Assembly (NCBI GenBank): GCA_040768605.1 | Contig: JAXGMP010000004.1 | Location: forward strand, 176,141-240,140 | Length of the DNA stretch: 64,000 nucleotides | Origin: Anaerolineae bacterium | Lineage (GTDB): Bacteria; Chloroflexota; Anaerolineae; UBA1429 | Direction of reading: 5' to 3' | The notes under the pieces: generated by a model | Seen by the model: only the letters and a program-made list of their open reading frames with translations | What the model was told of the DNA's origin: nothing | Database searches by the model: none | Shown here: piece after piece, positions 1 to 45,726 of the stretch | How the letters are laid out: the number at the start of each line of letters is the position of its first letter | Position numbering within the stretch: the first letter of the stretch is position 1 | Made by a program: the position numbers and the translations under genes

Positions 1-90
1 CCAGTCGGGGACGTCCAGGCGCAGGGCGGTGTTGCCCAGCGGGTCCCAAGCCTCATAGAGCGTATGGAAATCGAGCCTAGAACTGCCCAT
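1..90 (-). CDS. partial ORF (first 30 codons, runs off the window edge); candidate immunity gene after an AHH-toxin C-terminal remnant
   Basis: ATG at 90-88 (MGSSRLDFHTLYEAWDPLGNTALRLDVPDW...) overlaps the TAG at 79-77 of the upstream remnant. The frame is open to nt 1 and third positions are mostly G/C. No family recognised. Confidence 0.3.
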   Translation of the reverse strand, partial: MGSSRLDFHTLYEAWDPLGNTALRLDVPDW

Positions 91-297
91 GAAAGCCGAA
101 CTCCTTGGCCAGCATGCGGGCCATGTCTAGAACTTCGTCCGCGGTCGGCGCCCGGCCGGCGGCCTCGAACTCGCCGAAGAACTCTGCCCATTCCTGTCCG
201 TAGCGCCAGCTCCAGCGCTGGTGCGCCGGCGTCTCCACCCAGGCGCCGTAGAGCGGGCGGGCTGGGGCGGCCGGCGCCCGCGGACGCCTGCGGGCGC
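77..297 (-). pseudogene. start-less remnant of an AHH-type toxin C-terminal domain
   Basis: My reverse-strand translation is ...LYGAWVETPAHQRWSWRYGQEWAEFFGEFEAAGRAPTADEVLDMARMLAKEFGFHGQF*. It aligns with the tail of the toxin at 4446-5465 (RWGAWVEASKHTH...PTLDNVIRFAEQLAAKFGIPWGYS). There is no in-frame start and no AHH motif. Confidence 0.5.
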
Positions 298-1002
298 CTA
301 CAGGTCCTCGACCCGCTGCTTGATGAAGCCCATATAGTACGCGCCATAGTCGCGGCCAGCCCAGCGCTCGCGGTCGTGCGGCTCCTCGCTGTGAATCTCC
401 TCGACCCGCGTGAAGCCAAAGTGCTTGGAATACCCGGCCCTCAGGGTGAGCTCCGCCACCTCGCGGGTACAGAACAGAAAGCCGTAATAGAGGACCCCAA
501 AGATGGAGGAGCCGTCCCAGCTGCTCTCGTCGATCTGGACGCCGTGCGGCAACGGCTCGGTGAGCTTCGGAAACGCATAGTCGTCGCTGCCGCAGACGGG
601 GCAGGGCGGGCCAAGGGGGGGCGGCTCCTCCAGGCGCACGAACGCGCTGGGCCGTACCAGGGCGTACTCGGGCACCTCGGTGGGGAAGGGCTTCTTGGTG
701 CGCTTGCTCCAGCCGATGACGTGGACGGGCGTGGCGCTAAAGCCGGTGAGGCCGTGGGCCTGCCAGAGGTCGATGAGATCCCTGCGGAAGACAAAGTGGA
801 GGCTGCTCACCGGCAGGGTATCGGCAAGGCCGCGCCGGCCGAGGTGGTCGATCACGGCGTCGTAGCTTGCTAGTTCCTCATCGATGAAAGCGCTACAGCC
901 CGGACACCTGTACCAGGGCGACTCGGTCAGCCGGCCGCAGGCGGTCAGCTGGGGGCGGTCTGCTATCGTGCTTCGCAGCGAGTAAAAGTACCTTGGCTTC
1001 AT
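298..1002 (-). CDS. putative polymorphic-toxin immunity protein with two CxxC motifs (paralog 3)
   Basis: Paralogous over its full length to 1080-1781 and 3718-4422. Carries CPGC and CPVCG and a conserved C-terminus QRVEDL*. AAGGAG sits 6 nt before the ATG at 1002. Resembles the 'double-CXXCG motif' paralogous family as I remember it. Confidence 0.7.
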   Translation of the reverse strand: MKPRYFYSLRSTIADRPQLTACGRLTESPWYRCPGCSAFIDEELASYDAVIDHLGRRGLADTLPVSSLHFVFRRDLIDLWQAHGLTGFSATPVHVIGWSKRTKKPFPTEVPEYALVRPSAFVRLEEPPPLGPPCPVCGSDDYAFPKLTEPLPHGVQIDESSWDGSSIFGVLYYGFLFCTREVAELTLRAGYSKHFGFTRVEEIHSEEPHDRERWAGRDYGAYYMGFIKQRVEDL

Positions 1003-1079
1003 GCTGTGCTCCTTCATCTGGCGATGAGGCTAGTGCACCCAGTCGATGTGCCCCCCTGCCGCGCGCCGCCCGGCGCCGT

Positions 1080-1781
1080 CTACAGGTCCTCGACCCGCTG
1101 CTTGTAGAAGCTATCCTGATAGTCGATGTACTCCTCGCGCGTCCAGCGGGCGCTGTCGTAGCGCGAGATGGTGCCATACTCCTCCAGGCGGGTGAAGCCG
1201 ACGTACTTTTTGAACCCGGCGCCCAGGGTGAGTTCGGCCACCTCCCGCGTGCAGAAGAGGAAGGAGTAGCCGAACAGGCCGAAAAAGTCGGAGCCGTCCC
1301 AGCTGGCCTCGTCGATGGCCGTGCCGTGGGGCAGCGGCGCGAGGTCCTTGGGGAAGGCGTATTCGGCACGGTGGCAGACGGGGCAGGGGCTCTCGGCGAG
1401 CGGCGGCTCCAGCAGGCGGACGAAGGAGGAGGCCTGCACCCAATAGTACTCGGGCACCTCGGTGGGGAAGGGCTTCTTGGTGCGCTTGCTCCACCCGGTG
1501 ACGTGGACGGGCATGGCGCTGAACCCGGTCAGGTCGTGGGCGCGCCACAGGGCGACCAGGTCCTGGCGGAGCACCAGCCAGAGGGACGCCACGGGCAAGA
1601 CCTCGGCGAAGCCGCGGCCGAGGTGGTCGATCACGGCGTGGTAGGCGTCGTGCTGCTCTTGGATGAGCCAGTTACACGCCGGGCAGCGGCGCACGCTCCG
1701 GTCAACGACTTTGCCGCTGGCGACGGCGCGTTCAAAGTCCCAGGGGGGACAGGTCAGGTGGTAGAAGCGACGGCTTTGCAT
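1080..1781 (-). CDS. putative immunity protein with two CxxC motifs (paralog 2)
   Basis: MQSRRFYHL...CPACNWL...CPVCHRAE...QRVEDL*. AGGAGG lies upstream of the ATG at 1781. The gene starts 23 nt after the orphan AHH C-terminal fragment, the same spacing as the toxin/immunity pair at 4446/4422. Confidence 0.75.
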   Translation of the reverse strand: MQSRRFYHLTCPPWDFERAVASGKVVDRSVRRCPACNWLIQEQHDAYHAVIDHLGRGFAEVLPVASLWLVLRQDLVALWRAHDLTGFSAMPVHVTGWSKRTKKPFPTEVPEYYWVQASSFVRLLEPPLAESPCPVCHRAEYAFPKDLAPLPHGTAIDEASWDGSDFFGLFGYSFLFCTREVAELTLGAGFKKYVGFTRLEEYGTISRYDSARWTREEYIDYQDSFYKQRVEDL

Positions 1782-1804
1782 CGGCCCTCCTTCGGATCGG
1801 GCGA

Positions 1805-2002
1805 TCAGGGCCCCCACGGGATGGTGTACTCAACAGCGAGCTGCTCGGCGAAGGCGATCGTCTGCTCGAGCGTCGGTTTGCTGATGCGACGCAACCACTC
1901 GGCCCAGCGGCGGTTGTAGTCTCCGTGCACGCCGCCCTTGGCGACGTGCCATGCCTTCTCCACCCAGGTGCCCCAGCGCGGGTCGTGGACGTTGATGCCC
2001 AT
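1805..2002 (-). pseudogene. orphan C-terminal fragment of an AHH nuclease toxin (lacks the catalytic AHH motif)
   Basis: MGINVHDPRWGTWVEKAWH...AFAEQLAVEYTIPWGP matches the last ~65 aa of 4446-5465. Homology also covers the upstream in-frame codons FQR and then stops. Confidence 0.6.
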
Positions 2003-2059
2003 CCTCTGGAACCGGTCCGCGCCCGGCTGGGCGCCCCTGGTCCGTCAGGGCGCGGCCCC

Positions 2060-2773
2060 TCACTTCTCCTCCGTCCCCTCCGGCGGCAGGATGTCGACCG
2101 TCATCACCGGCACCGCGCCGGGCGGCTGCTCGACCGAGACGCGCTCCACGCCCAGCGCCCGCCCCTCGGGGTCCGTGGCGGTGACCTGGGGGTAAAACTT
2201 GTGGGCCGGGTTGCCGGGCAGGGGGCCCAGGCGGCGCTCGGCGTCGGGGGGCAGGGGCTGGGCGTCGCGCCCGTCGATCTGCAGGAGAGCCTGGAGGCCG
2301 GAGCGGTTGCGGGCCAGGACGTAGAGGGCCGCCTGCGGGGGCTCCGGGCACTCCCCGCTGCCGACGCCAGCGCGGAACAGGTTGATCGGCCATCCCACCA
2401 GGCCGTCGCTCACGACGACCTCTAGCGGCACGGCGTTTCCCTCTTCGTCGGAGGCTTGCCAGTCGAGGGTGCAAGTCCCTGCGCCCGTCGCGTGCGGTGG
2501 GCGCACACTGCAGGGCTGGATCTCCCACAGCCAGTCCGGGTCGGCGTGGTACCGGACGCGCACCACACGGGCAGTGTGGTTCTCAAAGATCACGGTACAG
2601 GCCGGATCACACCCCGCCGCGGCGCAGGCGATGGCGGCCGCAAGCGCGCAGCCCAGCGCGGCAGCCCAATACCGGGTGGGCGTTCTAGGAGAGGTTCCAT
2701 ACACTGGGCAGCAGCCAGCCCCGATCGCGCTCGTGGACCTTGCGCACTTGCTGGGCTTGCGTCTCATAGGCAT
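2060..2773 (-). CDS. hypothetical protein, probably a lipoprotein (start uncertain)
   Basis: Internal hydrophobic segment ending in a lipobox-like AAAGC. An in-frame GTG just before it is an alternative start. No family recognised. Confidence 0.45.
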   Translation of the reverse strand: MPMRRKPSKCARSTSAIGAGCCPVYGTSPRTPTRYWAAALGCALAAAIACAAAGCDPACTVIFENHTARVVRVRYHADPDWLWEIQPCSVRPPHATGAGTCTLDWQASDEEGNAVPLEVVVSDGLVGWPINLFRAGVGSGECPEPPQAALYVLARNRSGLQALLQIDGRDAQPLPPDAERRLGPLPGNPAHKFYPQVTATDPEGRALGVERVSVEQPPGAVPVMTVDILPPEGTEEK

Positions 2774-2800
2774 TCCCCCCGTCGTACTTGAGCGCTGGCC

Positions 2801-3421
2801 CTAAGCGCGCAGCGTCGGCCGCTGGGCGGCCGGGCGCTCCCAGATGACGTCGTTCTCCTCATCGTAGGCGCCCAGCACCACGAACTCGGTGCGGGCGGCC
2901 AGCAGCGCGATCACCTCGGCGCCCACCCACTCTGAGTGACGGAGCGGCGGGTGCTCGTCGGGCAGCGAGGTCAGCAGGGCAATGAAGGGGTACAGAAGGC
3001 CATACTCCTCCAGGTCGCGCAGGGCGCGGCGCTCTGGACGGCGGGGGCCGGCCAGGAAGAGATGCATGTCGATCTCGCCCTCGTGGAGGAAGAAGGGCAC
3101 CCGTAGCTCCTCCACAGCGGGCCACGACAGCCGCAGCTGCGAGGGTGCGACCACACAGCGCGACGGATGGCCGGCAAGGTAGTCGGCCAGGACCTCGTCC
3201 TCCCAGTGGTAGTCCGCGTCGCCCCACGGTTCCAGCATTCCGGACGGCAGCCGCCGGACCGCCTCGTCGCGGGCGAGGTGGTCCGGCACGCGGGTCCACA
3301 CGCGCCCGCCTTCGATCGGCAGCAACGCGAGGCACTTGCCGATCGGCAACACGGAGTGGGAGACGACCTGGCGCACCCACCTCAGCCCTACTTCTCCCAG
3401 ATCGTAAGTGACGAGGCCCAT
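2801..3421 (-). CDS. hypothetical protein; candidate immunity partner of the 3430-3684 toxin-tip remnant
   Basis: This is the 3' part of the chimeric 544-aa track ORF. The ATG at 3421 (MGLVTYDLGEVG...) lies 9 nt after the stop of the upstream fragment. Composition is acidic and non-repetitive. Confidence 0.5.
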   Translation of the reverse strand: MGLVTYDLGEVGLRWVRQVVSHSVLPIGKCLALLPIEGGRVWTRVPDHLARDEAVRRLPSGMLEPWGDADYHWEDEVLADYLAGHPSRCVVAPSQLRLSWPAVEELRVPFFLHEGEIDMHLFLAGPRRPERRALRDLEEYGLLYPFIALLTSLPDEHPPLRHSEWVGAEVIALLAARTEFVVLGAYDEENDVIWERPAAQRPTLRA

Positions 3422-3429
3422 GGCGCTGT

Positions 3430-3684
3430 TCACCTCCGCTTCGTGTCGAACGTGCCGTCCAGGTAGAGCCGAAATCGCAGGATGCCGCGCACATAGTCCC
3501 AATGGGGAGCGTGGTCCGCGGCCGACAAGTGCGGGTGCAGGCTCTCCTTGCTCGCTGCGCGAGGGTATGCGCCCAAACCACTGGCGGGTTCGCCATACCC
3601 CCGCCACTCCCACTCGCCGGAGGGCACCACACCGGCATAGTACGCCGGGGCAGTGTGAGGGCGAGTGGCGGCGCCTTTGCCCAA
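3430..3684 (-). pseudogene. possible orphan toxin C-terminal fragment of a second, unrecognised type
   Basis: 84-aa ORF with GC-rich third positions (...HWDYVRGILRFRLYLDGTFDTKRR*). It sits between an immunity gene and a tightly spaced downstream ORF. No motif recognised. Confidence 0.35.
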
Positions 3685-3717
3685 GTGCGCCCCCCGCCGT
3701 GCGCCGCCTGGCGCTGT

Positions 3718-4422
3718 CTACAGGTCCTCGACCCTGCGTTTGTAGAAGCTCTCGTAATAGTTGGCGTACTCCTCGTGCGTCCAGCGGGCGCTGTCGTAGA
3801 TCTCCCGTGTGGCAAACTCCTCGAGCCGCATGAAGGCGAGATGCTTGTTGTATCCGGCGCGCAGGGTGAGCTCGGCCACCTCTCGTGTGCATATGAGGAG
3901 AGAGTAGCCGAAGACGCCGAAAAAGTCGGAGCCGTCCCAGCTGGCCTCGTCTATGGCCGTGCCGTGGGGCAGCGGCGCGAGGTCCTTGGGGAAGGCGTAT
4001 TCGGCACGGTGGCAGACGGGGCAGGGGCTCTCGGCGAGCGGCGGCTCGAGCAGGCGGACGAAGGAGGTGGCCTGCACCCAATAGTACTCGGGCACCTCGG
4101 TGGGGAAGGGCTTCTTGGTGCGCTTGCTCCAGCCGGTGACGTGGACGGGCGTGGCGCTGAAACCGGTCAGGCCGTGGGCGCGCCACAGGTCGACCAGGTC
4201 CTGGCGGAGCACCAGCCAGATGTCCGCCACATGGAGGACGTCGACAAAGCCGCGGCGGCCGAGGTGGTCGATCACGGCGTGGTAGGCGTCGTGCTGCTCC
4301 TCGATGAAGCGGTTGCACGCCGGGCAGGGGTGCCCGCTCCAGTCGGTCACTCTGCCACTCGCCATGAGATGCGTTTCGTCTACCACCGTGCTCCACAGGA
4401 TGTAGAACCGGCGCTCTTGCAT
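3718..4422 (-). CDS. putative cognate immunity protein with two CxxC motifs (paralog 1)
   Basis: MQERRFYIL...CPACNRF...CPVCHRAE...RRVEDL*. GGAGGT lies before the ATG at 4422, 23 nt downstream of the toxin stop. Confidence 0.75.
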   Translation of the reverse strand: MQERRFYILWSTVVDETHLMASGRVTDWSGHPCPACNRFIEEQHDAYHAVIDHLGRRGFVDVLHVADIWLVLRQDLVDLWRAHGLTGFSATPVHVTGWSKRTKKPFPTEVPEYYWVQATSFVRLLEPPLAESPCPVCHRAEYAFPKDLAPLPHGTAIDEASWDGSDFFGVFGYSLLICTREVAELTLRAGYNKHLAFMRLEEFATREIYDSARWTHEEYANYYESFYKRRVEDL

Positions 4423-4445
4423 GGTACCTCCACATCCAGGACGGA

Positions 4446-5465
4446 TCAGCTGTATCCCCAGGGGATGCCGAACTTGGCAGCCAGCTGCTCGGCGAACCGG
4501 ATCACATTGTCCAGTGTCGGGTGTTCGTTGCTCACGAACCAGTCCTGCCATAGTTTGTTGTACCCACTCGGGTGCAGGCCGCCCCGATGTGTATGTTTGC
4601 TAGCCTCCACCCAGGCGCCCCAGCGCGGGTCGTGGACGTTGATGCCCATCCTTTGGAACTGCTCCGCGAACTGCTTGGGCAGCATGTGGTGGGCGTGGTA
4701 CTCGCCTCCGGTCGGCTTGGGCACCCGGTGCCCCAGGTTCGCGCGGAAGTTCCCCGCCCCGTAGGTCGGTACCCGCGGCGGTCGCCCCGCTGTGGCGGCC
4801 ACGATGGAGACCCCGTAGGCCGCCTCCGCAACGGCGACCGCATCGACCGCCAGCACCACCGGCACGGCGACCACCGCCGCGGCGCCGCCACTGGCCGCCG
4901 TGACGATGGCGCCCCCGCCGGTGACCGTCAGCGCGGTAGCCAGGCCGTGGGCGGTCAGGGCCATGCCCACGCCCTGCGCCACCCGGGCACCCGCCGCGGC
5001 CCCGCGCTGAAAGTCGTACTGCTGCTCTTGCTCCCAGTCGCGCAGGACGCGGCCGGTGATGCCCCAGGTCATGTCGTTCAGGATGCCGTAGCCGGCACCC
5101 AGCGAGAAGTGCAGCCAGGCGGGCAGGTTGCCGCTGGGGTCATTGTACTTGAGCGGGTTGCCCAGCACATAGGAGTAGCGGTTGAGCGACTGCGGGTTCT
5201 GGTAAGAGGGCACCAGCGGGTCGGGCTGGAGGAAGCGCCCGGTAGTAGGGTCGTACCAGCGGGCGCGATAGTGGTAGATGCCGCCGAGGGAATCCGCCTC
5301 CCACTGGCCGGTGTAGCGGTAGGCAGTGGCGACGGTGCCGCTGCCGCGCCGGGCGCCGTAGGGCAGGTAGCGCTGGGTGGCGATGCGGGCGCCGGTGGTG
5401 TTAGTCGTCGAGGAGAGGTGGTCGGCGTGCAGGGTGGTCACCCCGGCGCTGTCGCGCATGGCCAC
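4446..5465 (-). CDS. N-terminally truncated RHS-repeat tail fused to an AHH (HNH/EndoVII-superfamily) nuclease toxin domain
   Basis: RHS-type repeats (YRYTGQWEADSLGGIYHYRARWYDPTTGRFLQPDP). Core-end motif NPLKYNDPSGN (DPSGN at 5141-5127). A Gly/Ala-rich linker, then GGEYHAHHMLP (AHH at 4694-4686). The frame is closed by a TAG about 20 nt upstream of the first ATG, so only about 110 aa of RHS core remain. Confidence 0.75.
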   Translation of the reverse strand: MAMRDSAGVTTLHADHLSSTTNTTGARIATQRYLPYGARRGSGTVATAYRYTGQWEADSLGGIYHYRARWYDPTTGRFLQPDPLVPSYQNPQSLNRYSYVLGNPLKYNDPSGNLPAWLHFSLGAGYGILNDMTWGITGRVLRDWEQEQQYDFQRGAAAGARVAQGVGMALTAHGLATALTVTGGGAIVTAASGGAAAVVAVPVVLAVDAVAVAEAAYGVSIVAATAGRPPRVPTYGAGNFRANLGHRVPKPTGGEYHAHHMLPKQFAEQFQRMGINVHDPRWGAWVEASKHTHRGGLHPSGYNKLWQDWFVSNEHPTLDNVIRFAEQLAAKFGIPWGYS

Positions 5466-5638
5466 CCGCTGGCCGGCAAAGGCTTTCTAGGGATGTTAAG
5501 GTGCACACTGGTCGCTAGGCGTTGCCAGTGTACTTGACATGGTCGTATGCTACGCTAGGCGAAGCCGGGGCGCAAGATGCGCGCGGGCAGGAAATCCTTC
5601 CAGCCCGCGCGCCTGGGAACCGGCGCTCAGCAAGCCCC

Positions 5639-6337
5639 TCACTCCGTCAGCACGAAGGAGGCCACGATCAGGTCGGCCGCCTCTTCCTCCGCCGCGCTCA
5701 GCGTCTGCCCGCGTGAGACGTCCCCCCGCAGGTCGAGCGACACGGTGAAAGCGCGCCCGTCCCGCTCTATCTCGCGGGCCGCGTCGTACAGCACGCCGTG
5801 GTGCTGCCCCTGGGCCACCAGCACCACCCGGTCGACCTCCTCACCGAGGAACAGGACGCTCCCCATGGTCAGCAGGTCCCCCGAGCCGACGCCGGTGCGC
5901 GTGATCTGCTGGTCCTCCGCGGTGCGCTTGAAGGCGATGCTCAGCATCCCGAGCGACCCGGCCGGCGGCTCCAGCTGGACGAGGTGGTCCACCATGGTCG
6001 AGGGGGGCGCGGGCGGCGGCAGAACGGTCCAGTCGGGCGGGTAACGGAAGGAGAAGCCGTAGGCCGTGCTCGCCCAGGTTGGCCAGCCGGCATAGTCGAA
6101 CGGCGTCGGCGTCGGGGCCGGCGGCGGGGCGCTGGGCGCGGGGAGGGCGCTGGGCGCGGGGAGGGCAGTGGGCGCCGGGGTGGCGGTCGGGGGCGCCGTT
6201 TCCCGCGCCGGCACCGCCGTCGGCCTCTCTGCCGACGGCGGCGGGGGCGGGGTAGGGCGCGGCGCCAACGCCGCGCAGCCGCTCAGCGCCAGGGTCACCG
6301 CGAGCGACAGGCTCAGCACGAACAGGGGCGTCCTCAT
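5639..6337 (-). CDS. hypothetical lipoprotein with a Pro/Ala-rich linker
   Basis: MRTPLFVLSLSLAVTLALSGC lipoprotein signal, followed by a P/A/T-rich low-complexity stretch and a globular C-terminus. Confidence 0.6.
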   Translation of the reverse strand: MRTPLFVLSLSLAVTLALSGCAALAPRPTPPPPPSAERPTAVPARETAPPTATPAPTALPAPSALPAPSAPPPAPTPTPFDYAGWPTWASTAYGFSFRYPPDWTVLPPPAPPSTMVDHLVQLEPPAGSLGMLSIAFKRTAEDQQITRTGVGSGDLLTMGSVLFLGEEVDRVVLVAQGQHHGVLYDAAREIERDGRAFTVSLDLRGDVSRGQTLSAAEEEAADLIVASFVLTE

Positions 6338-9179: not shown

Positions 9180-10001
9180 CTAACCCTTCTTGGTCACCGA
9201 GCGGAGGTAGTAGATGGCCGCCCCGCTGGCGCACAGGTATGAGACCACGCCCAGGGCGTTGGCCACGCCCAGGTCGTTCTGTTGCTTGATGCGATAGTAG
9301 ACGTCGATCATGACCATCTGGGGCCCCTCGCCGCCGCCGATCATCATGGGGATGGAGAAGGAGGCCAACATCGACGTAAAGATCAGCACGGCCGCCACGG
9401 CGATGGACGTGACGGACATCGGCAGCAGCACGTCCTTGACCTGGCGGAACCAGCCCGCGCCAAAGTTGCGCGCCGCCTCGAGGAAGGTGTCACCCACCGA
9501 CTCAAAGGCGCCCAGGGTCAGCAGGATGGCCAGCGCCATGTTCTTCCAGGCCAATGAGACCGAGATGCCCACCCAGGAATAGGCGATCGAGGGGGGATGG
9601 TCGAGGTTGACCAGCCCCAGCGTCGCCAGCCCCGAGTTCAGCAGGCCGTGCGGCGCCAGGAAGATGCGCATGGCGTGCCCCACCACGACGTAGGGGACGA
9701 ACAGCGGGATCTTGAACAGGAACTCGACCCATTGGCCGCCATAGATGCGCACAAAGCCAGAGACGAGCACCGCGATGATGAGCACCAACACCAAACTGAC
9801 GGCCGAAACAAAGATGGTATAGAGCACATCGCCCGCATAGAGGCGATAGGCCGTGGCATAGTTCTGGAAGGTGAACTCCCCGGCATCGTTCAGGAAACTC
9901 GTGATCGCCGAGCGCACAAAGGGCATGAAAAACAGGCCGACCACGATCGCCAGCGACGGCAGCGCCAACAGCAGCCAGGCGCCCGCGCGCCATCGTTTCA
10001 T
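9180..10001 (-). CDS. ABC transporter permease
   Basis: MetI-like permease. ATG at 10001 (MKRWRAG) is preceded by GGAGGA. Confidence 0.85.
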   Translation of the reverse strand: MKRWRAGAWLLLALPSLAIVVGLFFMPFVRSAITSFLNDAGEFTFQNYATAYRLYAGDVLYTIFVSAVSLVLVLIIAVLVSGFVRIYGGQWVEFLFKIPLFVPYVVVGHAMRIFLAPHGLLNSGLATLGLVNLDHPPSIAYSWVGISVSLAWKNMALAILLTLGAFESVGDTFLEAARNFGAGWFRQVKDVLLPMSVTSIAVAAVLIFTSMLASFSIPMMIGGGEGPQMVMIDVYYRIKQQNDLGVANALGVVSYLCASGAAIYYLRSVTKKG

Positions 10002-10070
10002 CTGTTCCTCCGATCGCGTTGGGCTGGGCCGGGAAACCCCGACCCAGCCCAGTGCCATAGGGCCGTGGGT

Positions 10071-11219
10071 CTATTTGGCTTCCTCGTAGGCCGTCTGGAA
10101 GTCCTTCATGTACGGCGCGATCGGGAACGACAGGCCGTACTTGGCCAGCACCTCGGCGGGTATGTCGCCAAAGAGCTTCTGCTTGCCCTCCTCCGACACG
10201 TTCGGCAGGACCTTGGTGGGGTCGATCCCCGGGTACCAGCCCTGCTGGTCCACGATGACCTTGGCCTGCTGCTCGGGGCTGCAGATGAACTCGGCGTACT
10301 TGATCGCCTCGGCCGTGTGGGCGGCCTTGGCCGGGATCACGACGTACATGGGCTGGCCGGGCATGCCCGGCTCGATCAGCTTCATGCGCATCTTGGGGTC
10401 CATGCGCCCCTCGTTCTGCCAGAGGACGAACATGTCCACCCAGACGGGGCCCATGTCGATCTCACCGCGGTTGAGGCGGTCGAGGGTGTCGTTGTTGCCC
10501 GTGGTGATGGTGGCGGGCAGGGCCTTCATCTCGGAGAAGATGTCCCGCCAGGTAGCCTCGATGGCCGGATCATAAGGGCCCTTGGAGAGCTGCTCGTACA
10601 TGCCCGTCTTCCAGTAGAGCCAGCCGCCGGCAAAGGCCACGCCGCTCATGCCCCCCTTGACGCCGTTGTACCCAAAACGGTCGGGGTGTGCGTTGATCCA
10701 CTCGACCAGCTCCTCGTACGAGTTGGGCACCGGGTCAACCACCTCGGGGTTGTAGGCCAGCGCCGTCTGCGAGTGGAACATGGGGATGACATAACCGTCG
10801 CAATCGGTGCCCAGGGCGTTGCGCGCGTCTGCGGTGGTCACCAGGCTGGCGATGCTCGTCTGGGGCACGTACTTGAGCAGCAGCCCGTCCTCGATCATCA
10901 GGTTCATGATGCTCTGGTGGACGATGGCGATGTCCATGTCCCAGGTGGCCGAGCCCGCGTCGGCCTGGGCCTTGAGCTTGGTGTAGATAGTCTGGCTGCC
11001 GGCGTCGCCCGGGCCGGTGCCGACCACGTTGATCTCGACGGCGGGATGGGTCTCGACGAACTCGGGGCCGAACTTGTTGCGCTGCAGCTCCTCCATGTTG
11101 GTGTCTCCCGCGGTGACGATGGTGAGCGTCACCTTGCCGCCGGGGGTCACCACGCAGCCAGGGAGCAGCACGGCAACGAGGACCAGACAGAGGAAGAGGG
11201 TCAACGTTCTGCGCGACAT
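10071..11219 (-). CDS. ABC transporter substrate-binding lipoprotein (family-1 solute-binding protein)
   Basis: Signal peptide plus lipobox LLPGC. First gene of an SBP-permease-permease-ATPase operon. Confidence 0.85.
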   Translation of the reverse strand: MSRRTLTLFLCLVLVAVLLPGCVVTPGGKVTLTIVTAGDTNMEELQRNKFGPEFVETHPAVEINVVGTGPGDAGSQTIYTKLKAQADAGSATWDMDIAIVHQSIMNLMIEDGLLLKYVPQTSIASLVTTADARNALGTDCDGYVIPMFHSQTALAYNPEVVDPVPNSYEELVEWINAHPDRFGYNGVKGGMSGVAFAGGWLYWKTGMYEQLSKGPYDPAIEATWRDIFSEMKALPATITTGNNDTLDRLNRGEIDMGPVWVDMFVLWQNEGRMDPKMRMKLIEPGMPGQPMYVVIPAKAAHTAEAIKYAEFICSPEQQAKVIVDQQGWYPGIDPTKVLPNVSEEGKQKLFGDIPAEVLAKYGLSFPIAPYMKDFQTAYEEAK

Positions 11220-11418
11220 TGCGTTCCTCCTGGATGTGATACGATCGACCGGCCTCCAATCAAGCGACGCTGCTCACGGTGCGGGTCGAGATGGGCCTCC
11301 TTTCTGGCACGTACTGCCGGTGGCTGGGGCGTGCCGATGCCGCGGCGTGGCCCCTCCCCGGGCGCGTGGCCCGGGAGGGGGCGGGCTGCTCCGCTGTGGA
11401 CGGCTAGGCCGCCCTGGT

Positions 11419-11516
11419 CACACCGTCACGGTCACACCGTCACGGTCACACCGTCACGGTCACACCGTCACGGTCACACCGTCACGGTCAGACCGTCACG
11501 GTCACACCGTCAGGCT
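11419..11516. repeat. tandem 14-nt repeat CACACCGTCACGGT, about 6.7 copies
   Basis: Read directly. The arms ACCGT and ACGGT alternate through the array. It begins at the stop codon of the MBL gene and lies upstream of the ABC operon. Confidence 0.9.
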
Positions 11517-12242
11517 CAGGCCGTCGTGCGCCAAGGTCAGGGGGCGGCGAAAGATGCGGCCGGCCTGGGCCCGGGCGACCTCAGCCCGGCACGACGGGTA
11601 GAAATGGGTCAACACCAGGTGCCCCGCGCCGGCGCAGGCGGCGATCTCTGCCGCCTGCGAGGGGGTCAGATGGTCCGGCTTGGCCAACTCATCGGGAAAG
11701 GAGCACTCGAGCACCAGGAGGTCCGCGCCGCGGGCCAGGGCGGTGAGCTCCGGCACGGGCGCCGCGTCGCCAGAGATGACGGCGACGCGGCCGGCGGCCT
11801 CCAGTCGGTAGGCGAGCGAGCCGGGCATGTGCCCGGTGGGCGCGGTGCGCACCGTCCAGCCCGGGCCGCAGCAGGGGGCCGTCTCGGCCGGGTGGCGGCG
11901 CAGCGCGAACGTCTGCGGCCTGGCCCAGGGCTGCAGGGCCAGCAGCCCGTCGAGGAAGGGCCAGAGGGCAGACGGGGCGGTCAGGTGCAGGTCACGCGTG
12001 CGGCCGGCCAGGTCCATGGCCTGTAGGAGGGGGATCAGGTCGGCCGTATGGTCCGAGTGGAGGTGGGTGTAGTAGAGATAATCCAGGTCCTGGGGCACGA
12101 CCCCGGCGGCGAGGAGGCGGGTGATCGTCCCCGAGCCGGAATCGAAGAGGAGCGCGGCGTCGCCGATCTGCACGAGGAGCCCGGACGGTCCTCGCTCTGC
12201 ACTTGGCAGGCCAGTGCCGGTGCCCAGGAACGTCATCCGCAT
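11502..12242 (-). CDS. MBL-fold metallo-hydrolase (RNase Z/BN-like)
   Basis: MRMTFLGTGTG...HLHSDH (HxHxDH motif). GGAGGGG lies before the ATG at 12242. Confidence 0.8.
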   Translation of the reverse strand: MRMTFLGTGTGLPSAERGPSGLLVQIGDAALLFDSGSGTITRLLAAGVVPQDLDYLYYTHLHSDHTADLIPLLQAMDLAGRTRDLHLTAPSALWPFLDGLLALQPWARPQTFALRRHPAETAPCCGPGWTVRTAPTGHMPGSLAYRLEAAGRVAVISGDAAPVPELTALARGADLLVLECSFPDELAKPDHLTPSQAAEIAACAGAGHLVLTHFYPSCRAEVARAQAGRIFRRPLTLAHDGLSLTV

Positions 12243-21020: not shown

Positions 21021-21145
21021 CCGCGTGCGCGCCCGGCCATCGCGGGCGACGGCGCGGCCACCTGCGCGCCCGGCCCATCCGCACGAGCCGGGCGCGCGCC
21101 TGTGCTCGTGTGTCGCTAGGCCTTGGGACCCACAGGAGGAACGTT

Positions 21146-23743
21146 ATGAGGCAGTACCTCGAACCGCTCCGCGCCTACGCCGTCACGCCGCCCGCTGGCC
21201 TGCCGCCCGATATCCTGCCCTGGGACCACGCCGAGCCCTGGGGCCTCGACGGGGCCGCCCGGGCCACCCTCGGTTTCCTGCTGGACGGCGGGGCCCCCGG
21301 CCCGCGCCTGGCCGCCCTGGCCGACTATCTGCTGGCCTTCTCGATCGAGGGGTTCGGCGCGCAGCAGTTCCCCGATGCGCAGCTCCTCAACGGGGCGGCC
21401 CTGGCCCTGTGCGGCTACCTGGCCGAGGGGCACCATCCGGAGGCGGAGTTATGGCGGGTCTCCGGGTGCGCCCGGCTGGCCTCCCAGGTGCACTGGCGCA
21501 AGGCGGCCCTCAATGACCGCGTCGCCGCCGATTGCCTGTTGGCCGTGGCCCGCGTGGCCGGCGCGACCGGCCTGCCCGTCCTGGCCGACATCCTGACCCT
21601 GCGCGAGCGCATGTGGGGCCAGTTCGCGGACCATTCCCGCGCCGAACGCCTGCACGTCTCTGCGGAGGACTATGCCTCCCACCTGCGCGAGCCCGTCCCG
21701 CCGGAGCGCCTCGGCGCGCTGATGGCCGGGCGGGAATGGCAGTGGACGGCCTGCTCGCGCGAGTACCGGCCGGCCAACGCCCTCCAGGGGGCGAACCCCG
21801 ACCTGGACCTGGCCGATGCCGACAACGCCTGCCGCAACCTGATCACCTTCCGGGCGCACATGCTGCTCCGCCACCAGTTCGGCAGCGATGTGGACTGGCA
21901 CCTGCGCCTGTTTGACGACGTCGAATCCACCGTGAGCCTGGGGGCCATGCCCTTCGTCCGCAACCTGGCCGGCGCCTACAACCAGACGGGCCAGGCCAAG
22001 TACGCCGAGGCCGCCGCGCGGCTGCTCTGGTCGTTCTACCGCGGCGCGCCGCTGCCCAACCACCGGCAGCCGCAGGGCCCCTGGCGCACCCTCGAGGTCG
22101 GCAACCGCCAGGCCAACACCTGGCCGGAGGTGATCGGTGCACTCGGGCAGACGGAGCCCTTTGACGAGGCCCTCCACGCCATGCTGGCCCGCTCCCGGCT
22201 GGAGCACATCCGCTACCTCCTGGCCCACTCGGGCGGGGCGAACAACTGGTACCAGGTCGAGGCGGCCGGGCTGGCCGTGGCGGCGCTCTACTCGCCCGAG
22301 CTGCGCCACGCCGATGCCATCCTGCGGGTGGCCATGCGCCGGCTGCGCTGGCTGAACTCCTTCGCCTACTATGACGACGGCTTCCAGTTCGAGCTGACCC
22401 ACGGCTACCACGTCTTCCCCACCTCGTCGATGTTCGCCGTCGTACGGGTGGCCCGGGCGCGCGGGGTGGCGCTGCCGCAGGATTTCGTCGACCTGCTGGC
22501 CAAGGCCCACGAGATGTACCTGTACGCCCAGCAGCCGGATCGCTTCCTGCCGATGTTCAACGACTGCAACCCCCACCCGACCGACCCGGCGCCGCTGCTG
22601 GCTGCGGCGGCCGAGGTCTACGGGCGGGACGATTTCGTCTGGGGCGCCACCCATGGCCAGCGCGGCCAGGCCCCCGACCACGCCTCGCACGCCTGGGGCT
22701 CGGCCGGGCTGTACGCCATGCGCGACTCTTGGGCGGAGGCGGCCCAGTACCTCCTGTTCGACGGGGCCGCCTGGGGCGCCTCGCACCAGCATGAGGACAA
22801 GCTGAACTTTATCCTGCACGCCGGCGGGAGGCTGCTGGTGGGCGACCCGAACATCTACTCTTACTCGCGCACCGAGCTGACGCACTATTTCCGCTCCTCG
22901 CGGGCGCACAACGTCGTCCTCATCGACGGGATGGGCCAGGCGCGGCGCCTGCGGCCGGAGGCCCGCCTGACCACGCTGGGCGCCAACGAGTGGGTCAGCA
23001 GACAGGGCTTCGATTTCGTCTCCAGCGAGTACCTGGAGGGGTATGCTCCCGACCCTTACGAGCCGCCGGCGGGGCCGGTTGTCGCCGACACACGCTTTAC
23101 CCATCGCCGGGCCATCTGGTACGTCAAGGGGGAGTACTGGATCCTGTGCGACCTGATCCGCGGCCCCGCGGACGGCCAGGCGCACACGCTGGAGCAGCTC
23201 TTCCACATCGCGCCGCTCTACGAGCCGGGCGCCGAGGAGCCCTACCGCGCCGGCGCCCTGTGGGCCCAGCCGCAGGAGATCGTCACCCGTGACGAGGGCC
23301 TCTCCAACCTGGCCATCCTGCCGGCCGACCCCGGCTGCCTCACGGTGCGCGCCGAAAAGGGACAGACCTCGCCGGCCGTGGGCTGGTACGGGGTGCTGGG
23401 CGAGTTCCCCGCCTGGGACGTGACTCTGGAGGCGCAGGCCCCCCTGCCCGCCAGGATGGACGCGGTGCTCTTCCCGCTGGCCCCCGGCGACGGCCTGGGC
23501 GACCGCCCCAAGGTGACCCGCCTCCGCGCGAGCGGGAAGGTCACGGCGCTCCGCGTCACGGGGCGCGGGCTCGACGACACCTTTATCCTGTGTGAGGAGG
23601 GCAGCGGGCCGGTGGAGGTCGCCGGCGTGGCCTTTGAGGGGCGGGCCGCGCTGATCCGCCGGGGCGGCGCCGGGCTCCGTGCCTACGCCGTGGACCCGCT
23701 CCGCCTGGCGGTGGACGGCCGCGAGGTGACGCCCGCGGTCTAG
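21146..23743 (+). CDS. heparinase II/III-like (polysaccharide lyase-like) protein
   Basis: GASHQHEDKLNFILHAGGRLLVGDPNIYSY...SRAHNVVLIDG is typical of the heparinase II/III C-terminal domain. AGGAGGA lies before the ATG at 21146. No signal peptide seen. Confidence 0.7.
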   Translation: MRQYLEPLRAYAVTPPAGLPPDILPWDHAEPWGLDGAARATLGFLLDGGAPGPRLAALADYLLAFSIEGFGAQQFPDAQLLNGAALALCGYLAEGHHPEAELWRVSGCARLASQVHWRKAALNDRVAADCLLAVARVAGATGLPVLADILTLRERMWGQFADHSRAERLHVSAEDYASHLREPVPPERLGALMAGREWQWTACSREYRPANALQGANPDLDLADADNACRNLITFRAHMLLRHQFGSDVDWHLRLFDDVESTVSLGAMPFVRNLAGAYNQTGQAKYAEAAARLLWSFYRGAPLPNHRQPQGPWRTLEVGNRQANTWPEVIGALGQTEPFDEALHAMLARSRLEHIRYLLAHSGGANNWYQVEAAGLAVAALYSPELRHADAILRVAMRRLRWLNSFAYYDDGFQFELTHGYHVFPTSSMFAVVRVARARGVALPQDFVDLLAKAHEMYLYAQQPDRFLPMFNDCNPHPTDPAPLLAAAAEVYGRDDFVWGATHGQRGQAPDHASHAWGSAGLYAMRDSWAEAAQYLLFDGAAWGASHQHEDKLNFILHAGGRLLVGDPNIYSYSRTELTHYFRSSRAHNVVLIDGMGQARRLRPEARLTTLGANEWVSRQGFDFVSSEYLEGYAPDPYEPPAGPVVADTRFTHRRAIWYVKGEYWILCDLIRGPADGQAHTLEQLFHIAPLYEPGAEEPYRAGALWAQPQEIVTRDEGLSNLAILPADPGCLTVRAEKGQTSPAVGWYGVLGEFPAWDVTLEAQAPLPARMDAVLFPLAPGDGLGDRPKVTRLRASGKVTALRVTGRGLDDTFILCEEGSGPVEVAGVAFEGRAALIRRGGAGLRAYAVDPLRLAVDGREVTPAV

Positions 23744-31592: not shown

Positions 31593-33587
31593 CTAGCTGC
31601 GCAGCAGAGGAATGAGCAGCGTGCGATGGTCCGGCGGGGCCGGCTGGGCGAACAGGGCGAACTCCCCGAGGCGGCAGACCGCTACCTGCAGGCGGTTGGC
31701 GCCCGGTTCCCGCAGGTAGGCGGAGGCGGGCGCGCAGGTGGTGGCCGCGTCGACCCAGCCGCCGTCGTCGCGGGCCAGTAGGCGCAGGGTGTCCTCGAGC
31801 AGGCCGGCCACTTCGCCGTCAGAGTAGGTCAGGGCGATCACGGCGGGGAGCCCGAGCGGCACCGTCACCACGTGCCCGAGGCGGTAGGCCGACAGGGCAA
31901 AGGCGCGCCCGGCATAGCGCCAGCCGGCGGGCGGGTCGGTCGGCGCGCCGAGCGGCGTGTAGAGCAGGGTAAAGGTCTCGGTCACCGCGTCCGGCGGGAT
32001 GGTGATGGTGATGCTGCGCCCGCCAGGGCTCGGCAGGGTCAGCGTGCCGCCGGCGCCGGGCGTCACCGCGACGGCCCCCACCTCGAGGGCCAGGAAGGAG
32101 TGCGTGGCCGTCACCGTCTCGCCCGAGCCGACCACCGCCACGGAGACCGTCTTGGGGCCGGTCGTCTCCCACTGGTAGCGGGCGGTGGCCGTCCCCTGGC
32201 CCGTGGTGGGCGCGGGAGACCAGGTGTAGGTCAGCGGTGGCGTGGCGTTGGGCGGGCTCACCGTGGCGGTGAAGGGATAGGTCTGCCCAAGCCCCCCTTC
32301 TGTAGGGCCGGCGATGGCCACCGAAGCGGGCGGGACGGTCACCACGGTGGGAGTGCAGGGCACCTCCGCAGAGAAGGGGCTGACCAGTTCGCTCTGCTGG
32401 ACGTCGTGCGCCGCGGTTACCGTGCGGACGGCGACATAGTAGGTGGTGCCGGGCGTCAGCCCGCCGATCCAGGCACTGGTCGCATGCTTGTCGGCCGTCA
32501 TGTGTCGGACCTCATAGGCCCCGCCCGGTACGGTCGAGACGCCGACCTCGTAGCCGCCCGTGTCGCCGGTGTAGGGGATAGCCGTCCAAGCAAGCGCCAC
32601 GCCGCCTAGGCCCGCGGTGGCCTGCAGGCCGGACGGCGGCACGGTCTGGGTGTTCTCCCAGCCGGGGGCCTTGGCGGCCAGGAAGGCCGTCGGGGAGGAC
32701 GCGTCGGCCCACAGCATATTGTACCCCAACGTGAGCGTTGTGAGGGCCGTCAGGTTGGCCAGGTTCGCCGGGATGGCGCCGCTCAGCCTGTTGGCGTGCA
32801 GCGTCAGGGCCTTCAGGTGGATCAGGGTGCCCAACGCGGACGGGATCGGCCCCTCGAGGCAGTTCCTATCCAGGCGCAGGTTGGCCAGGCTCGTGGCGCT
32901 GGCCAGGCTGCTGGGGATGCCGCCGTCGAGGGCGTTGCCGCTCAGGTCGAGCTCCTCCAGGGCGGTGAGGTTGCCGATGGCACTCGGGATGGGGCCCGTC
33001 AGTTCGCAGGAATCCAGAAAGAGCTCGGTCAGGTTCGTGAGCTGAAATAACTCGCTCGGGATGGTTCCACGCCAGGGGTTGGTGCACAGGTCGAGCCTGG
33101 TGAGGTTGGTGAGCGTGCCCAGCCAGGCAGGAAGGTTGCCGCTGAGGAGGTTCTGGTCGACGTTGAGGTCCTCGAGCGCGACCAGGTTCGCCATCTCATC
33201 GGGCAGCCCGCCGGTGAGCTGGTTGTCGGAGAGGTTCAGGTAGTTGAGGCCCGTGAGGGCGCCGATCTCTGGCGGGATAGAGCCCTTCAGCACGTTCGAG
33301 GGCAGGTCCAGCCGGGTGACGTGGCGCGGCTCACCGCTCTCCGGCTCGCAGTGCACCCCGTACATGTCGCAAGGGGTATCGTCCAGGGTCCAGGTGGTGG
33401 TCCAGTAGGGCCCGTTCGTGGCGTTGTACAGCGCGACGAGGGCCTCGTACTCGGCGGCCGGGATCTCGGTCTGCTCGGCACGGGCAGGTGGGGTCGTGGG
33501 CCAGGCGCCGCAGAGCGAGGCGCACATCACGAGCGCCAGGGCCAGGCTGGCGGCGCTCCGCATCGGGGGCCTTGCGCGACGGGGCAT
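31593..33587 (-). CDS. secreted plant-type leucine-rich-repeat protein (paralog) with FN3-like and PKD-like domains
   Basis: ATG at 33587 (MPRRARPPMRSAASLALALVMC) is preceded by GGAGGT. N-cap EYEALVALYNATNGPYWTTTWTLDDTPCDMYGVHC. About 9 LRRs. Same C-terminal domain order as 28540-31098. Confidence 0.85.
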   Translation of the reverse strand: MPRRARPPMRSAASLALALVMCASLCGAWPTTPPARAEQTEIPAAEYEALVALYNATNGPYWTTTWTLDDTPCDMYGVHCEPESGEPRHVTRLDLPSNVLKGSIPPEIGALTGLNYLNLSDNQLTGGLPDEMANLVALEDLNVDQNLLSGNLPAWLGTLTNLTRLDLCTNPWRGTIPSELFQLTNLTELFLDSCELTGPIPSAIGNLTALEELDLSGNALDGGIPSSLASATSLANLRLDRNCLEGPIPSALGTLIHLKALTLHANRLSGAIPANLANLTALTTLTLGYNMLWADASSPTAFLAAKAPGWENTQTVPPSGLQATAGLGGVALAWTAIPYTGDTGGYEVGVSTVPGGAYEVRHMTADKHATSAWIGGLTPGTTYYVAVRTVTAAHDVQQSELVSPFSAEVPCTPTVVTVPPASVAIAGPTEGGLGQTYPFTATVSPPNATPPLTYTWSPAPTTGQGTATARYQWETTGPKTVSVAVVGSGETVTATHSFLALEVGAVAVTPGAGGTLTLPSPGGRSITITIPPDAVTETFTLLYTPLGAPTDPPAGWRYAGRAFALSAYRLGHVVTVPLGLPAVIALTYSDGEVAGLLEDTLRLLARDDGGWVDAATTCAPASAYLREPGANRLQVAVCRLGEFALFAQPAPPDHRTLLIPLLRS

Positions 33588-33942
33588 AGGGGGTACCTCC
33601 GCAGTGCTCGCAGGACGGCTCTTCCCAAAGGACGACGCACACACCCAGGGCGAGGCGGGCCTGACGGAGAATGGGTTCGCCGAGATCAGGGCCGCCCCCC
33701 AACGCGGCCCCGTCCCTACGGAGGTGGGGAAGCACGTTCCGCCACGGGCGCGGCGTGAACGGTCCATTCCGCTGGAGCACTGGCTGGTACCGACGGCAGA
33801 GGCGGGCAAGGAGAGAGGGGATGAAGGCTGCCATCGTGCCAGGCGCGACATGACCCACCGCGTACAAGCTCGAGACACCCGTTGCCAGGCATCATACGTC
33901 CCGCGGGGCGCTATGTCAACAGGTTGGCGCAGCCGGCCCCGC

Positions 33943-45690: not shown

Positions 45691-45726
45691 GCCATAGACC
45701 CGACCGCACCAGGAGACACCGATACC

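Follow-up and report, generated by a model that had tools for sequence, protein, structure and literature searches.

A probable strain-variable toxin-immunity island headed by a truncated rhs stub in a Chloroflexota species

The window, the whole stretch of 64,000 nucleotides analyzed here, is part of a 372-kb contig of an Anaerolineae bacterium. An island that begins downstream of an ABC-transporter / ICMT / lipoprotein gene block runs along its minus strand from position 5486 to position 1 and continues for at least 1.3 kb beyond. An earlier note, made from the sequence alone, had listed an array of displaced rhs toxin tips and immunity genes in this interval, and every element of its list was found at or very near the positions given there. 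A six-codon remnant at 1030-1048 was absent from that list. The features, all on the minus strand, are as follows.

5639-6337 (-): upstream flank, a lipoprotein gene (232 aa, lipobox LSGC) that adjoins the stub in every allele examined
5487-5638 (-): non-coding leader of the head gene, with an in-frame TAG and promoter-like hexamers
4446-5459 (-): head gene, 337 aa, comprising core tail, hydrophobic Gly/Ala-rich linker and AHH nuclease; open reading frame intact in four head alleles
5127-5486 (-): Rhs core tail, the last ~110 residues of the Rhs shell (FAGQRVAM...YRYTGQ...RARWYDPTTGRF...NPLKYNDPSGN)
4785-4922 (-): hydrophobic segment rich in Gly, Ala and Val (residues ~180-225), lying after the Rhs cleavage motif and before the nuclease domain
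4449-4736 (-): SitA6/DUF2380-type AHH nuclease domain (PF09533, PF14412, TIGR02269)
3718-4422 (-): Imm1, double-CxxC, cognate to the head toxin; strong GGAGG ribosome-binding site 5 nt upstream
3433-3672 (-): C', 3' remnant (~80 codons; about 85 residues) of an unrelated Ntox37-like toxin, in an open fragment at 3430-3684
2801-3421 (-): D, presumed immunity gene of the C-type toxin, 206 aa, following C'
2060-2773 (-): E, lipoprotein-like gene, 237 aa, lipobox AAAGC; island cargo with paralogues
1805-2045 (-; end approximate): F', 3' remnant of an AHH toxin, from RFQRMGINVHDPRWG to the stop, without the AHH motif
1080-1781 (-): Imm2, double-CxxC, cognate to the F-type tail, 78 % identical to Imm1
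1030-1048 (-): last six codons and stop of a third AHH tail (L002 type), identified by aligning it to the 3' end of the L002 toxin gene
298-1002 (-): Imm3, double-CxxC, 60 % identical to Imm1
77-255 (-; end approximate): I', diverged AHH tail remnant, from LYGAWVE to the stop, found by tblastn
1-90 (-): start of J, the first 30 codons of a 204-aa gene whose full copy lies at 2662-3276 of L001

The head gene starts at an ATG at 5459, with an alternative GTG at 5465, and its frame is open from 5486. The in-frame TAG at 5487-5489 marks the point at which the Rhs shell is cut off, and no RHS sequence was found upstream of the core tail. Within the leader, a promoter-like site (TTGCGC at 5575-5570, a 17-nt spacer and TAGCAT at 5552-5547) scores under the promoter-scan threshold; the four-allele alignment shows both hexamers and the TAG to be conserved. 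The proposed fusion of an RHS-core tail to an AHH nuclease was borne out by profile searches. TIGR03696 (Rhs_assc_core) matches residues 33-112 with E = 1.1e-20, and the core tail, which includes the DPxG autoproteolysis motif, aligns in profile comparisons with the extreme C-terminal ~100 residues of the YenC2, TccC3, Tse5 and Rhs structures. At the other end of the protein, PF09533 (DUF2380) passes its cut-off (28.9 bits against 26.3), PF14412 (AHH) falls under its own at 16.9 bits, and the TIGR02269 (SitA6) match is confined to the C-terminus. The AHH motif is encoded at 4686-4694 and His289 at 4593-4595; H257, H258 and H289 are invariant. The linker between the core tail and the nuclease domain contains 19-residue Kyte-Doolittle windows above 1.6 and is predicted, with low confidence, to be helical.

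The three double-CxxC genes are 60–78 % identical to one another, and C33/C36 and C134/C137 are invariant in 14 family members. Their reading as immunity paralogs was upheld by remote homology. A profile search from the family reached Gmx_para_CXXCG in 28 of 64 distant matches and Imm11 in 11 of the 64, from which we place Imm1 to Imm3 in the Gmx_para_CXXCG/Imm11 superfamily; Imm1, at 20.9 bits under the Pfam cut-off of 25, is by this measure a divergent branch. The AF2 model of Imm1 (pLDDT 91.8) has a single fold match in the PDB, MXAN_0049 (probability 1.0, TM 0.51/0.55), which is the validated immunity protein of the Myxococcus AHH nuclease MXAN_0050 (PMC12077131). The reading frame noted at 90-1 is indeed present as the start of J, a divergent member of the Imm superfamily (hhalign against the Imm family, 95 % probability) without CxxC motifs, and its start codon (ATG) overlaps the I' stop. 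Every immunity gene either follows a GGAGG-type ribosome-binding site or has a start codon that overlaps a stop.

Between these genes lie the 3' ends of toxins, without catalytic residues, each followed by an intact immunity gene with good translation signals. F' is 56 % identical to the tail of the head toxin and 87 % to the intact tail of P0001 in L008, and a direct repeat of 74 nt (1958-2031 / 4605-4678) is 89 % identical. C' is 59 % identical to the C-terminus of P0005 and 48 % to p228 of L038; the likeness to Ntox37 comes from a weak match of P0012 (19.3 bits). Both remnants had been noted, as 2002-1805 and 3684-3430, but ATG (2002) and TTG (3684) fall within the remnants and are start codons only incidentally. 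The third AHH remnant is also present, but the range given for it (297-77) does not divide into whole codons; homology spans 77 to ~255, and I' matches the P0002 tail with 33 % identity over 54 aa (tblastn, E = 1e-4). D, unrelated to the CxxC family, begins 8 nt past the C' stop behind a GGAGGTG ribosome-binding site. The lipoprotein-like frame, E, which had also been listed, is cargo of the island and not a stray gene. Its family is tiny; a paralogue, K, lies further down the array (L001 3475-4038), the last 335 nt being 96 % identical to E, and E-like genes occur 3' of D in L038 and as three tandem copies in L041.

Serial replacement of tips, as proposed earlier, was shown by comparing the same locus across strains. 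Four other metagenomic contigs share the upstream gene, the leader and the stop codon that cuts the shell, and each has a different intact toxin tip at its head; three of these tips match the window's 3' remnants F', C' and the six-codon remnant. L008 carries an intact F tail (P0001) directly followed by Imm2, its positions 1469-1778 being 94 % identical to window 2021-1712. In L002, the third tail (P0002) at the head is directly followed by an Imm3 orthologue (92 % nucleotide identity). L009 carries an unrelated toxin, P0005, that ends as window 3433-3672 does. The C-type toxin is thus intact in other strains and fused to the same stub, and a D-like gene lies directly 3' of it in L009 and L038 and directly 3' of a C' remnant in L041. 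L001 is 99.5 % identical to window 1-2751. The flanking lipoprotein gene lies directly upstream of the stub in L002, L008 and L009 and has dN/dS of 0.15-0.44. From these comparisons the array is probably a strain-variable toxin-immunity island that occupies one fixed site in the chromosome of a Chloroflexota species, with a SitA6/DUF2380-type AHH DNase at its head and relics of earlier occupants behind it.

The AHH alleles differ by a swap of the last ~55 toxin residues and the immunity gene, not of the whole post-core tip. The recombination switch point lies at 4605, directly after WGAWVE, where the homology of both L002 and L008 to the head toxin ends. Beyond it the tails have dS = 1.6 and are therefore not orthologous. 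In L038 a displaced module is preceded by a copy of the 3' part of the stub leader, and both the ATG and ~200 nt are missing from its core; displaced copies thus decay while heads stay intact.

The 5'-most element is, as had been claimed, only a stub of rhs: it is kept intact with the same truncation point in four head alleles. Over head codons 1-245, comparison with L002 gave dN/dS of 0.21 (17 synonymous and 10 non-synonymous changes, p = 1e-4), an estimate that comprises 27 substitutions in two lineages; closer strain pairs give noisy values of 0.2-0.7. These head codons and the flanking ABC genes have the same dS, 0.09. The stub thus appears, from these substitutions, to be conserved under purifying selection. 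It is very improbable that the array is a dead rhs locus whose reading frames survive by chance. Several elements are clearly truncated remnants, and L003 holds a degraded stub in another lineage, but the head gene and all five complete immunity-type genes remain intact and have GC3 like that of the genome, the Imm3 cluster comprises 11 proteins that are nearly identical across samples, and dN/dS is below 1 for Imm3 as well as for the head gene.

A full-length rhs might instead lie elsewhere in the genome, with the stub and remnants as an untranslated reserve of tips for recombination into it. This is the usual textbook layout of short Rhs-tail genes, exemplified by L016 (a main rhs, then orphans) and L042 (an orphan 3' of another immunity gene); the stub keeps the ~330 nt of core-encoding sequence that such recombination needs, and the ribosome-binding site of the head ATG is weak (GGGTGG). 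We nevertheless regard it as unlikely. The search for a full-length rhs with the same core found no second Rhs core in the 64-kb window (tblastn) and no full-length Rhs with a core >65 % identical among 5.8 billion proteins, although at least 10 datasets contain the species; all matches above that identity were stub alleles, and no match of any kind exceeded 601 aa. The selection estimate and the four intact head frames also stand against it, and the stub leader on the displaced L038 module points to turnover among the stub alleles themselves.

The stub could also be a delivered interbacterial toxin that dispenses with the cocoon, its core tail and linker serving as an export, membrane-insertion or self-cleavage module. 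Purifying selection covers both segments, the linker is kept in homologues only 40 % identical, and head tips turn over fast, with four tips at dS <=0.1, as is typical of competition toxins. Solitary short Rhs-tail toxins also recur: L010 and L017 carry stubs with no full-length rhs nearby, so that the headless stub is real but less unusual than the earlier note supposed. We think this reading improbable, as the head protein has no signal peptide, lipobox, PAAR, LXG or other delivery domain, and no secretion genes were found within the 64-kb window. The frame opens partway through a beta-strand motif of the shell (FAGQRVAM), with a stop codon immediately before it, an arrangement that resembles a truncation more than a designed N-terminus. 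Modelled alone, the core tail appears disordered, with very low confidence (pLDDT 22-32), and may therefore not fold without the shell. Any delivery of the shell-less toxin may be regarded as putative.

Returning to the strain-variable island, the junctions suggest that recombination with the DNA of conspecific strains would bring in new tips. The left crossover would fall in the conserved flank, in the stub or, within the AHH domain, in the GINVHDPRWGAWVE block. The join on the right would be illegitimate, cutting short the preceding tip and displacing it downstream along with its immunity gene; the right-hand junctions are read from single examples. The downstream relics would be left over from earlier occupants, and the retained immunity genes may shield the cell from kin still producing those toxins. 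Because the head gene is intact and apparently under purifying selection, it is most likely translated, and with no shell or export signal its toxin most probably works within the producing cell, where Imm1 would restrain it and the two would form a selfish module resembling a toxin-antitoxin pair. The head gene may additionally provide a homologous 'landing pad' for the capture of new tips.

The island is a variant of an already known arrangement, the rhs orphan array. In Enterobacteriaceae, rhs orphan toxin/immunity modules arise by C-terminal displacement (PMC3150448, PMC7043789, bioRxiv 10.1101/2025.05.08.652813). As in the island, they combine a core-encoding piece with an alternative C-terminal toxin and an immunity gene, older tips are truncated and pushed downstream, and a tip that one strain keeps intact can be an orphan in a different strain. 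The island differs in that its head is a fixed 5'-truncated stub, apparently under purifying selection, in place of a full-length rhs; the non-coding leader of the stub recurs on a displaced module of a sister strain; AHH alleles exchange only the last ~55 toxin-domain residues with the immunity gene; and the host belongs to the Chloroflexota, with no T6SS genes nearby. The Salmonella orphan Rhs, which acts as a type II toxin-antitoxin module (PMC7043789), is likewise a shell-less C-terminal toxin, encoded beside its immunity gene, that the cell can produce without delivery. It adjoins a full-length rhs and a T6SS, however, and its expression has been shown experimentally, whereas expression of the island is presumed from sequence conservation.

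The toxin and its immunity protein resemble the AHH pairs of Myxococcus, namely the SitA6-SitI6 lipoprotein toxins (TIGR02269/DUF2380; PMC8546572) and MXAN_0050-MXAN_0049 (PMC12077131, PDB 6a4c). The toxin shares the DUF2380/SitA6 match and AHH motif, and the immunity protein the two CxxC motifs, the Gmx_para_CXXCG profile link and an MXAN_0049-like predicted fold. In contrast to those pairs, the island toxin is fused to an Rhs core tail and has no lipobox, escort domain or PAAR link, and Imm1 is the divergent branch that falls short of the Pfam cut-off. Orphan immunity arrays are also known from the T6SS loci of V. cholerae (PMC5361080) and the AID/rAID clusters of Bacteroidales (bioRxiv 10.1101/471110). 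These too are tandem immunity genes without cognate toxins, built by successive acquisition and thought to guard against neighbours. Unlike them, the island has no recombinase, integron-like repeats, skewed GC or mobile element, and it retains an intact toxin gene at its head and toxin remnants between its immunity genes.

All of the elements that the earlier note had listed between 5486 and 1 were confirmed on the minus strand. They form tandem modules in the style of rhs orphan arrays, each composed of a core fragment and/or the 3' end of a toxin gene together with an intact immunity gene:

4446-5486, minus: head gene, open from 5486 with ATG at 5459 and stop at 4446, an in-frame TAG lying at 5487-5489; Rhs core tail, hydrophobic linker and AHH nuclease with tail type A
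3718-4422, minus: Imm1, double-CxxC immunity gene, presumed cognate of the head toxin
3433-3672, minus: C', 3' toxin remnant
2801-3421, minus: D, presumed immunity gene of the C-type toxin
2060-2773, minus: E, lipoprotein-like gene
1805-~2045, minus: F', 3' toxin remnant, starting at RFQRMGINVH
1080-1781, minus: Imm2, double-CxxC immunity gene
1030-1048, minus: six-codon remnant of a further tail, from alignment to the end of the toxin gene of contig L002
298-1002, minus: Imm3, double-CxxC immunity gene
77-~255, minus: I', more diverged AHH tail
90-1, minus: start of J, a divergent relative of the Imm genes

F' lacks the AHH motif because the remnant begins only at RFQRMGINVH. The region has a G+C content of about 68 %. 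In third-position G+C (0.82-0.91) the island genes match those of the remaining window; by composition, the island is thus not foreign. No recombinase was found in or beside it, and apart from the paralogous genes it has no repeats. Secretion genes are likewise absent from its vicinity, where the neighbors are ABC-transporter, ICMT and lipoprotein genes.

The first ~110 residues of the head protein match the RHS-associated core (TIGR03696, E = 1.1e-20), and the PxxxxDPxG(L) autoproteolysis motif is present as NPLKYNDPSGN (region 5127-5141). A profile of the head protein and its relatives aligned this core tail with ~100 residues at the very C-terminus of shells of known structure (Rhs, TcC and Tse5), and the protein starts with MRDSAGVTTLHADHLSS, within the last shell repeat. 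No shell of YD/RHS repeats lies upstream of the core, the head protein has no RHS_repeat match, and at its N-terminus no domain match to a delivery domain (signal peptide, PAAR, LXG or similar) was obtained. On the 5' side of the TAG there is a 150-nt non-coding leader and then an unrelated lipoprotein gene, which bears out the remark that the 5'-most element is itself only an rhs stub. The DPSGN motif is followed by a hydrophobic stretch rich in Gly, Ala and Val (residues ~180-225). Taken by itself, the core tail was modeled as disordered.

No full-length rhs gene heading the array was found, either in the window or on the four other contigs that carry the locus, and tblastn detected no second Rhs core in the 64-kb window. 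Among 5.8 billion proteins, cores more than 65 % identical belonged to these stub alleles only, the longest match being at most 601 aa, and the species (Chloroflexota MAG, NLD44520.1) was found in at least 10 datasets. In a genome collection that does not include the window's own genome, the head protein matched nothing closer than distant Rhs cores (up to 52 %). The best match in a scan of metagenome contigs with the core tail was 56 %, which is uninformative, since the known alleles themselves are absent from that collection.

The same chromosomal locus is present on four further contigs, three of which have the upstream lipoprotein gene in common, and the leader and the identical TAG before KAFAGQRVAM are kept in all contigs of the locus. 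The tips carried by the head genes differ as follows:

L008 (head protein P0001): AHH nuclease with an intact F-type tail, then Imm2; homology switches from window 4605 to 2021 (94 %)
L002 (P0002): AHH nuclease with a third tail, then an Imm3 orthologue (92 % at the nucleotide level); the last six codons of the tail correspond to window 1030-1048
L009 (P0005; also P0012, Chloroflexota MAG): unrelated toxin, fused to the core behind NPL, then a D-like gene; the C-terminus corresponds to window 3433-3672
L038: head tip outside the contig, which begins within the preceding Imm3-like gene

The serial replacement of toxin tips that had been proposed is supported by tips intact elsewhere: F' corresponds to P0001 of L008, C' to P0005 of L009, and the six-codon remnant to P0002 of L002. 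The C-type toxin (P0012) matches Ntox37 weakly. In L038, the Imm3-like gene is followed by a second copy of the stub leader, a full C-type toxin gene, D-like and E-like genes, and marC; the core behind this second leader has lost its ATG and ~200 nt. The comparison of these four contigs leads to three conclusions: the remnants in the window are indeed former head tips, displaced copies decay while head copies remain intact, and the array was built from alleles of the same headless locus and not from a full-length rhs gene.

What AHH alleles exchange is no more than the ~55 C-terminal residues of the nuclease together with the immunity gene, the switch falling directly after a conserved GINVHDPRWGAWVE block. 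The dS is 1.6 in the tail codons and 0.09 in the remainder of the head gene. The locus suggests that immunity specificity resides in these ~55 residues. The window carries a 2.65-kb insertion that L008 lacks; it consists of tail A, Imm1, C', D and E and is flanked by copies of a 74-nt block (89 % identical). Homology between the window and L038 stops ~10 nt past the stop codon of E, which makes the right-hand join look illegitimate. On the minus strand, ~35 nt past the stops of Imm1 and Imm2 are conserved (window 3690-3725 and 1052-1085; TAGACRGCGCCRGGCGGCGCRCGGC.GGGGGG) and different toxin remnants follow; the end of this conserved stretch marks the 3' edge of the exchanged cassette.

The array could be followed past the window on L001, a 4-kb contig 99.5 % identical to window 1-2751, which completes J and continues with K, a paralogue of E. 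The last 335 nt of E (window 2060-2395) and K (L001 3713-4047) are 96 % identical and their 5' halves only ~50-60 % alike, a mosaic that points to gene conversion or to a role as a recombination arm. The occurrence of E next to marC in L038 had led to E being considered a housekeeping gene of the flank. This was ruled out by L041, where three tandem E paralogues stand in another context (9246-11563), behind a C' remnant, a D-like gene and a 97-aa ORF that contains the HExxH motif HEYVH. The arrangement in L041 points to E-like proteins as orphan immunity proteins against a toxin of the metallopeptidase type. Since E-like genes travel with C/D cassettes and stand three in tandem in L041, they are probably further orphan immunity genes, in this case against an envelope-acting toxin. 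In the same contig (~8030-8286), a signal-peptide-like N-terminus, MPPAPVPHESLRLRVLSSVLLSLYLAVSPVLVPPVRAAS, is fused in frame to the C-terminal ~45 residues of an Ntox37-like toxin.

The ~95-residue toxin domain of the head protein matched DUF2380 (PF09533) at 28.9 bits, over the Pfam cut-off of 26.3, and AHH (PF14412) at 16.9 bits, under the cut-off of 22.3. It also matched the C-terminal part (positions 109-201, 26.9 bits) of the TIGR02269 model, 'SitA6 family polymorphic toxin lipoprotein'. SitA6 toxins have been described as AHH nucleases (PMC8546572). Three histidines of the head protein (H257, H258 and H289) do not vary in 9 homologues. The AHH motif spans 4686-4694, and H289 is the downstream His. 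A nuclease of this family would be expected to have a His-Me finger fold and DNase activity. The predicted toxin domain has a pLDDT of 70-89 in a whole-protein model that averages only 46.9, and a fold search with this poor model gave no meaningful match.

Imm2 and Imm3 are 78 % and 60 % identical to Imm1, and all four cysteines of the two CxxC motifs (C33/C36 and C134/C137) are invariant across 14 family members. In single-sequence Pfam searches, Imm1 reached 20.9 bits against Gmx_para_CXXCG (PF09535), below the cut-off of 25, and Imm2, Imm3 and six relatives had no match. A profile of the 14 sequences retrieved 242 relatives from 1.8 billion representative proteins, and its distant relatives included Gmx_para_CXXCG (28/64), Imm11 (11/64) and Imm43 (3/64) proteins. 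The AlphaFold model of Imm1 (pLDDT 91.8) had a sole significant Foldseek match in the PDB, 6a4c, the NMR structure of MXAN_0049 (probability 1.0, TM 0.51/0.55). The family profile had no match among PDB sequences, the link to MXAN_0049 being one of fold only. Experiments have validated MXAN_0049 as the protein that confers immunity to the AHH nuclease MXAN_0050 (PMC12077131, PMC6627406). The three paralogues can therefore be placed in an immunity family as suggested, and not in a housekeeping family, because the profile search, the fold match and the role of MXAN_0049 agree on immunity. The candidate immunity genes of the island are probably functional. J (204 aa) lacks the CxxC motifs and belongs to the same superfamily (hhalign probability 95 %); D is unrelated to the CxxC family. 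PADLOC returned no matches for the island proteins, and no link to known phage-defence systems was found. These results extend the range of the SitA6/MXAN_0050-type pair of AHH nuclease and CxxC immunity protein from Myxococcus to Chloroflexota.

Related stubs occur in several settings. [quoted passage not shown] Headless cases are L017, a solitary stub on a 4.25-Mb contig, and L010/L011, with two consecutive stubs, a CxxC immunity gene and an Imm11 gene. A stub does stand at the head of the array, as the earlier note said; given L010/L011 and L017, the arrangement is not unique. The stub of L003 is degraded and uninformative. In L010 (9103-13342, GCA_034432795.1), both 290-aa Rhs-tail stubs carry an AHH-type toxin; behind one lies the CxxC immunity gene and behind the other Imm11, with a PhD/PIN toxin-antitoxin pair beyond. 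No full-length rhs gene is present, and the upstream gene is divergent. A deep conservation of the 'MRD...' start, an idea derived from protein P0008, was rejected. L042 has RHS repeat sequence further upstream in another frame, and these repeats and the preceding immunity-like gene make it a classical orphan in which the Met is merely a conserved internal residue.

Elsewhere in the window, a BREX-like phage-defence cluster lies on the plus strand at 41899-51049, ~35 kb from the island, with BrxC/PglY (DUF6079, 1263 aa), a PglX methyltransferase, PglZ and BrxA. Two adjacent genes on the minus strand (28540-31098 and 31593-33878) encode large leucine-rich-repeat proteins of 852 and 761 aa, the second with an fn3 domain, and a heparinase II/III-like protein of 877 aa (21110-23743, plus strand) adjoins sugar ABC-transporter genes.

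All four head alleles are intact ORFs (4/4, 311-342 aa). Head codons 1-245 of the window differ from those of L002 by 17 synonymous and 10 non-synonymous changes, small counts that give a dN/dS of 0.21 (p = 1e-4 against neutrality), and the dS of the head gene, 0.09, matches that of the flanking ABC-transporter genes (0.08-0.155). A promoter-like TTGCGC-N17-TAGCAT in the leader is conserved among alleles yet falls below the promoter-scan threshold, and the ribosome-binding site of the head gene is weak. The promoter and terminator scan of the minus strand gave nothing above chance; two 'terminators' were discarded, as they fall within the conserved SWDGSDFF-coding sequence of Imm1 and Imm2.

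The description that fits the locus best is a headless rhs orphan island, whose head gene probably yields a protein that goes undelivered. A bolder reading, which we consider rather doubtful, is a shell-less 'mini-Rhs': the core tail would be the functional N-terminal module of a selected, expressed toxin gene, and its tips would be renewed by recombination among the stub alleles of the population, with no need for a full-length rhs gene in the genome. If this were true, the RHS-associated core domain would have a role outside the cocoon, for example in self-cleavage, partner docking or export. As a rule, Rhs orphan modules are regarded as spare parts for a neighboring full-length rhs gene. 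The headless island offers four head alleles of one locus that combine a common truncated stub, fast tip turnover and signs of purifying selection. If upheld, it would mean that toxin-tip turnover and immunity hoarding are possible without the Rhs delivery shell, and the question of what keeps orphan toxins intact would become testable in a simple natural system.

The island differs from AID/rAID clusters, which have a recombinase, integron-like intergenic repeats, skewed GC and a mobile element, none of which is seen here. It differs as well from the SitA lipoprotein toxins of outer-membrane exchange, which carry an N-terminal lipobox and an escort domain; no signal peptide, lipobox or SitA escort domain was found in the head protein. 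The head toxin of this island, probably translated and undelivered, resembles a precedent in Salmonella, the orphan Rhs toxin-antitoxin (PMC7043789).
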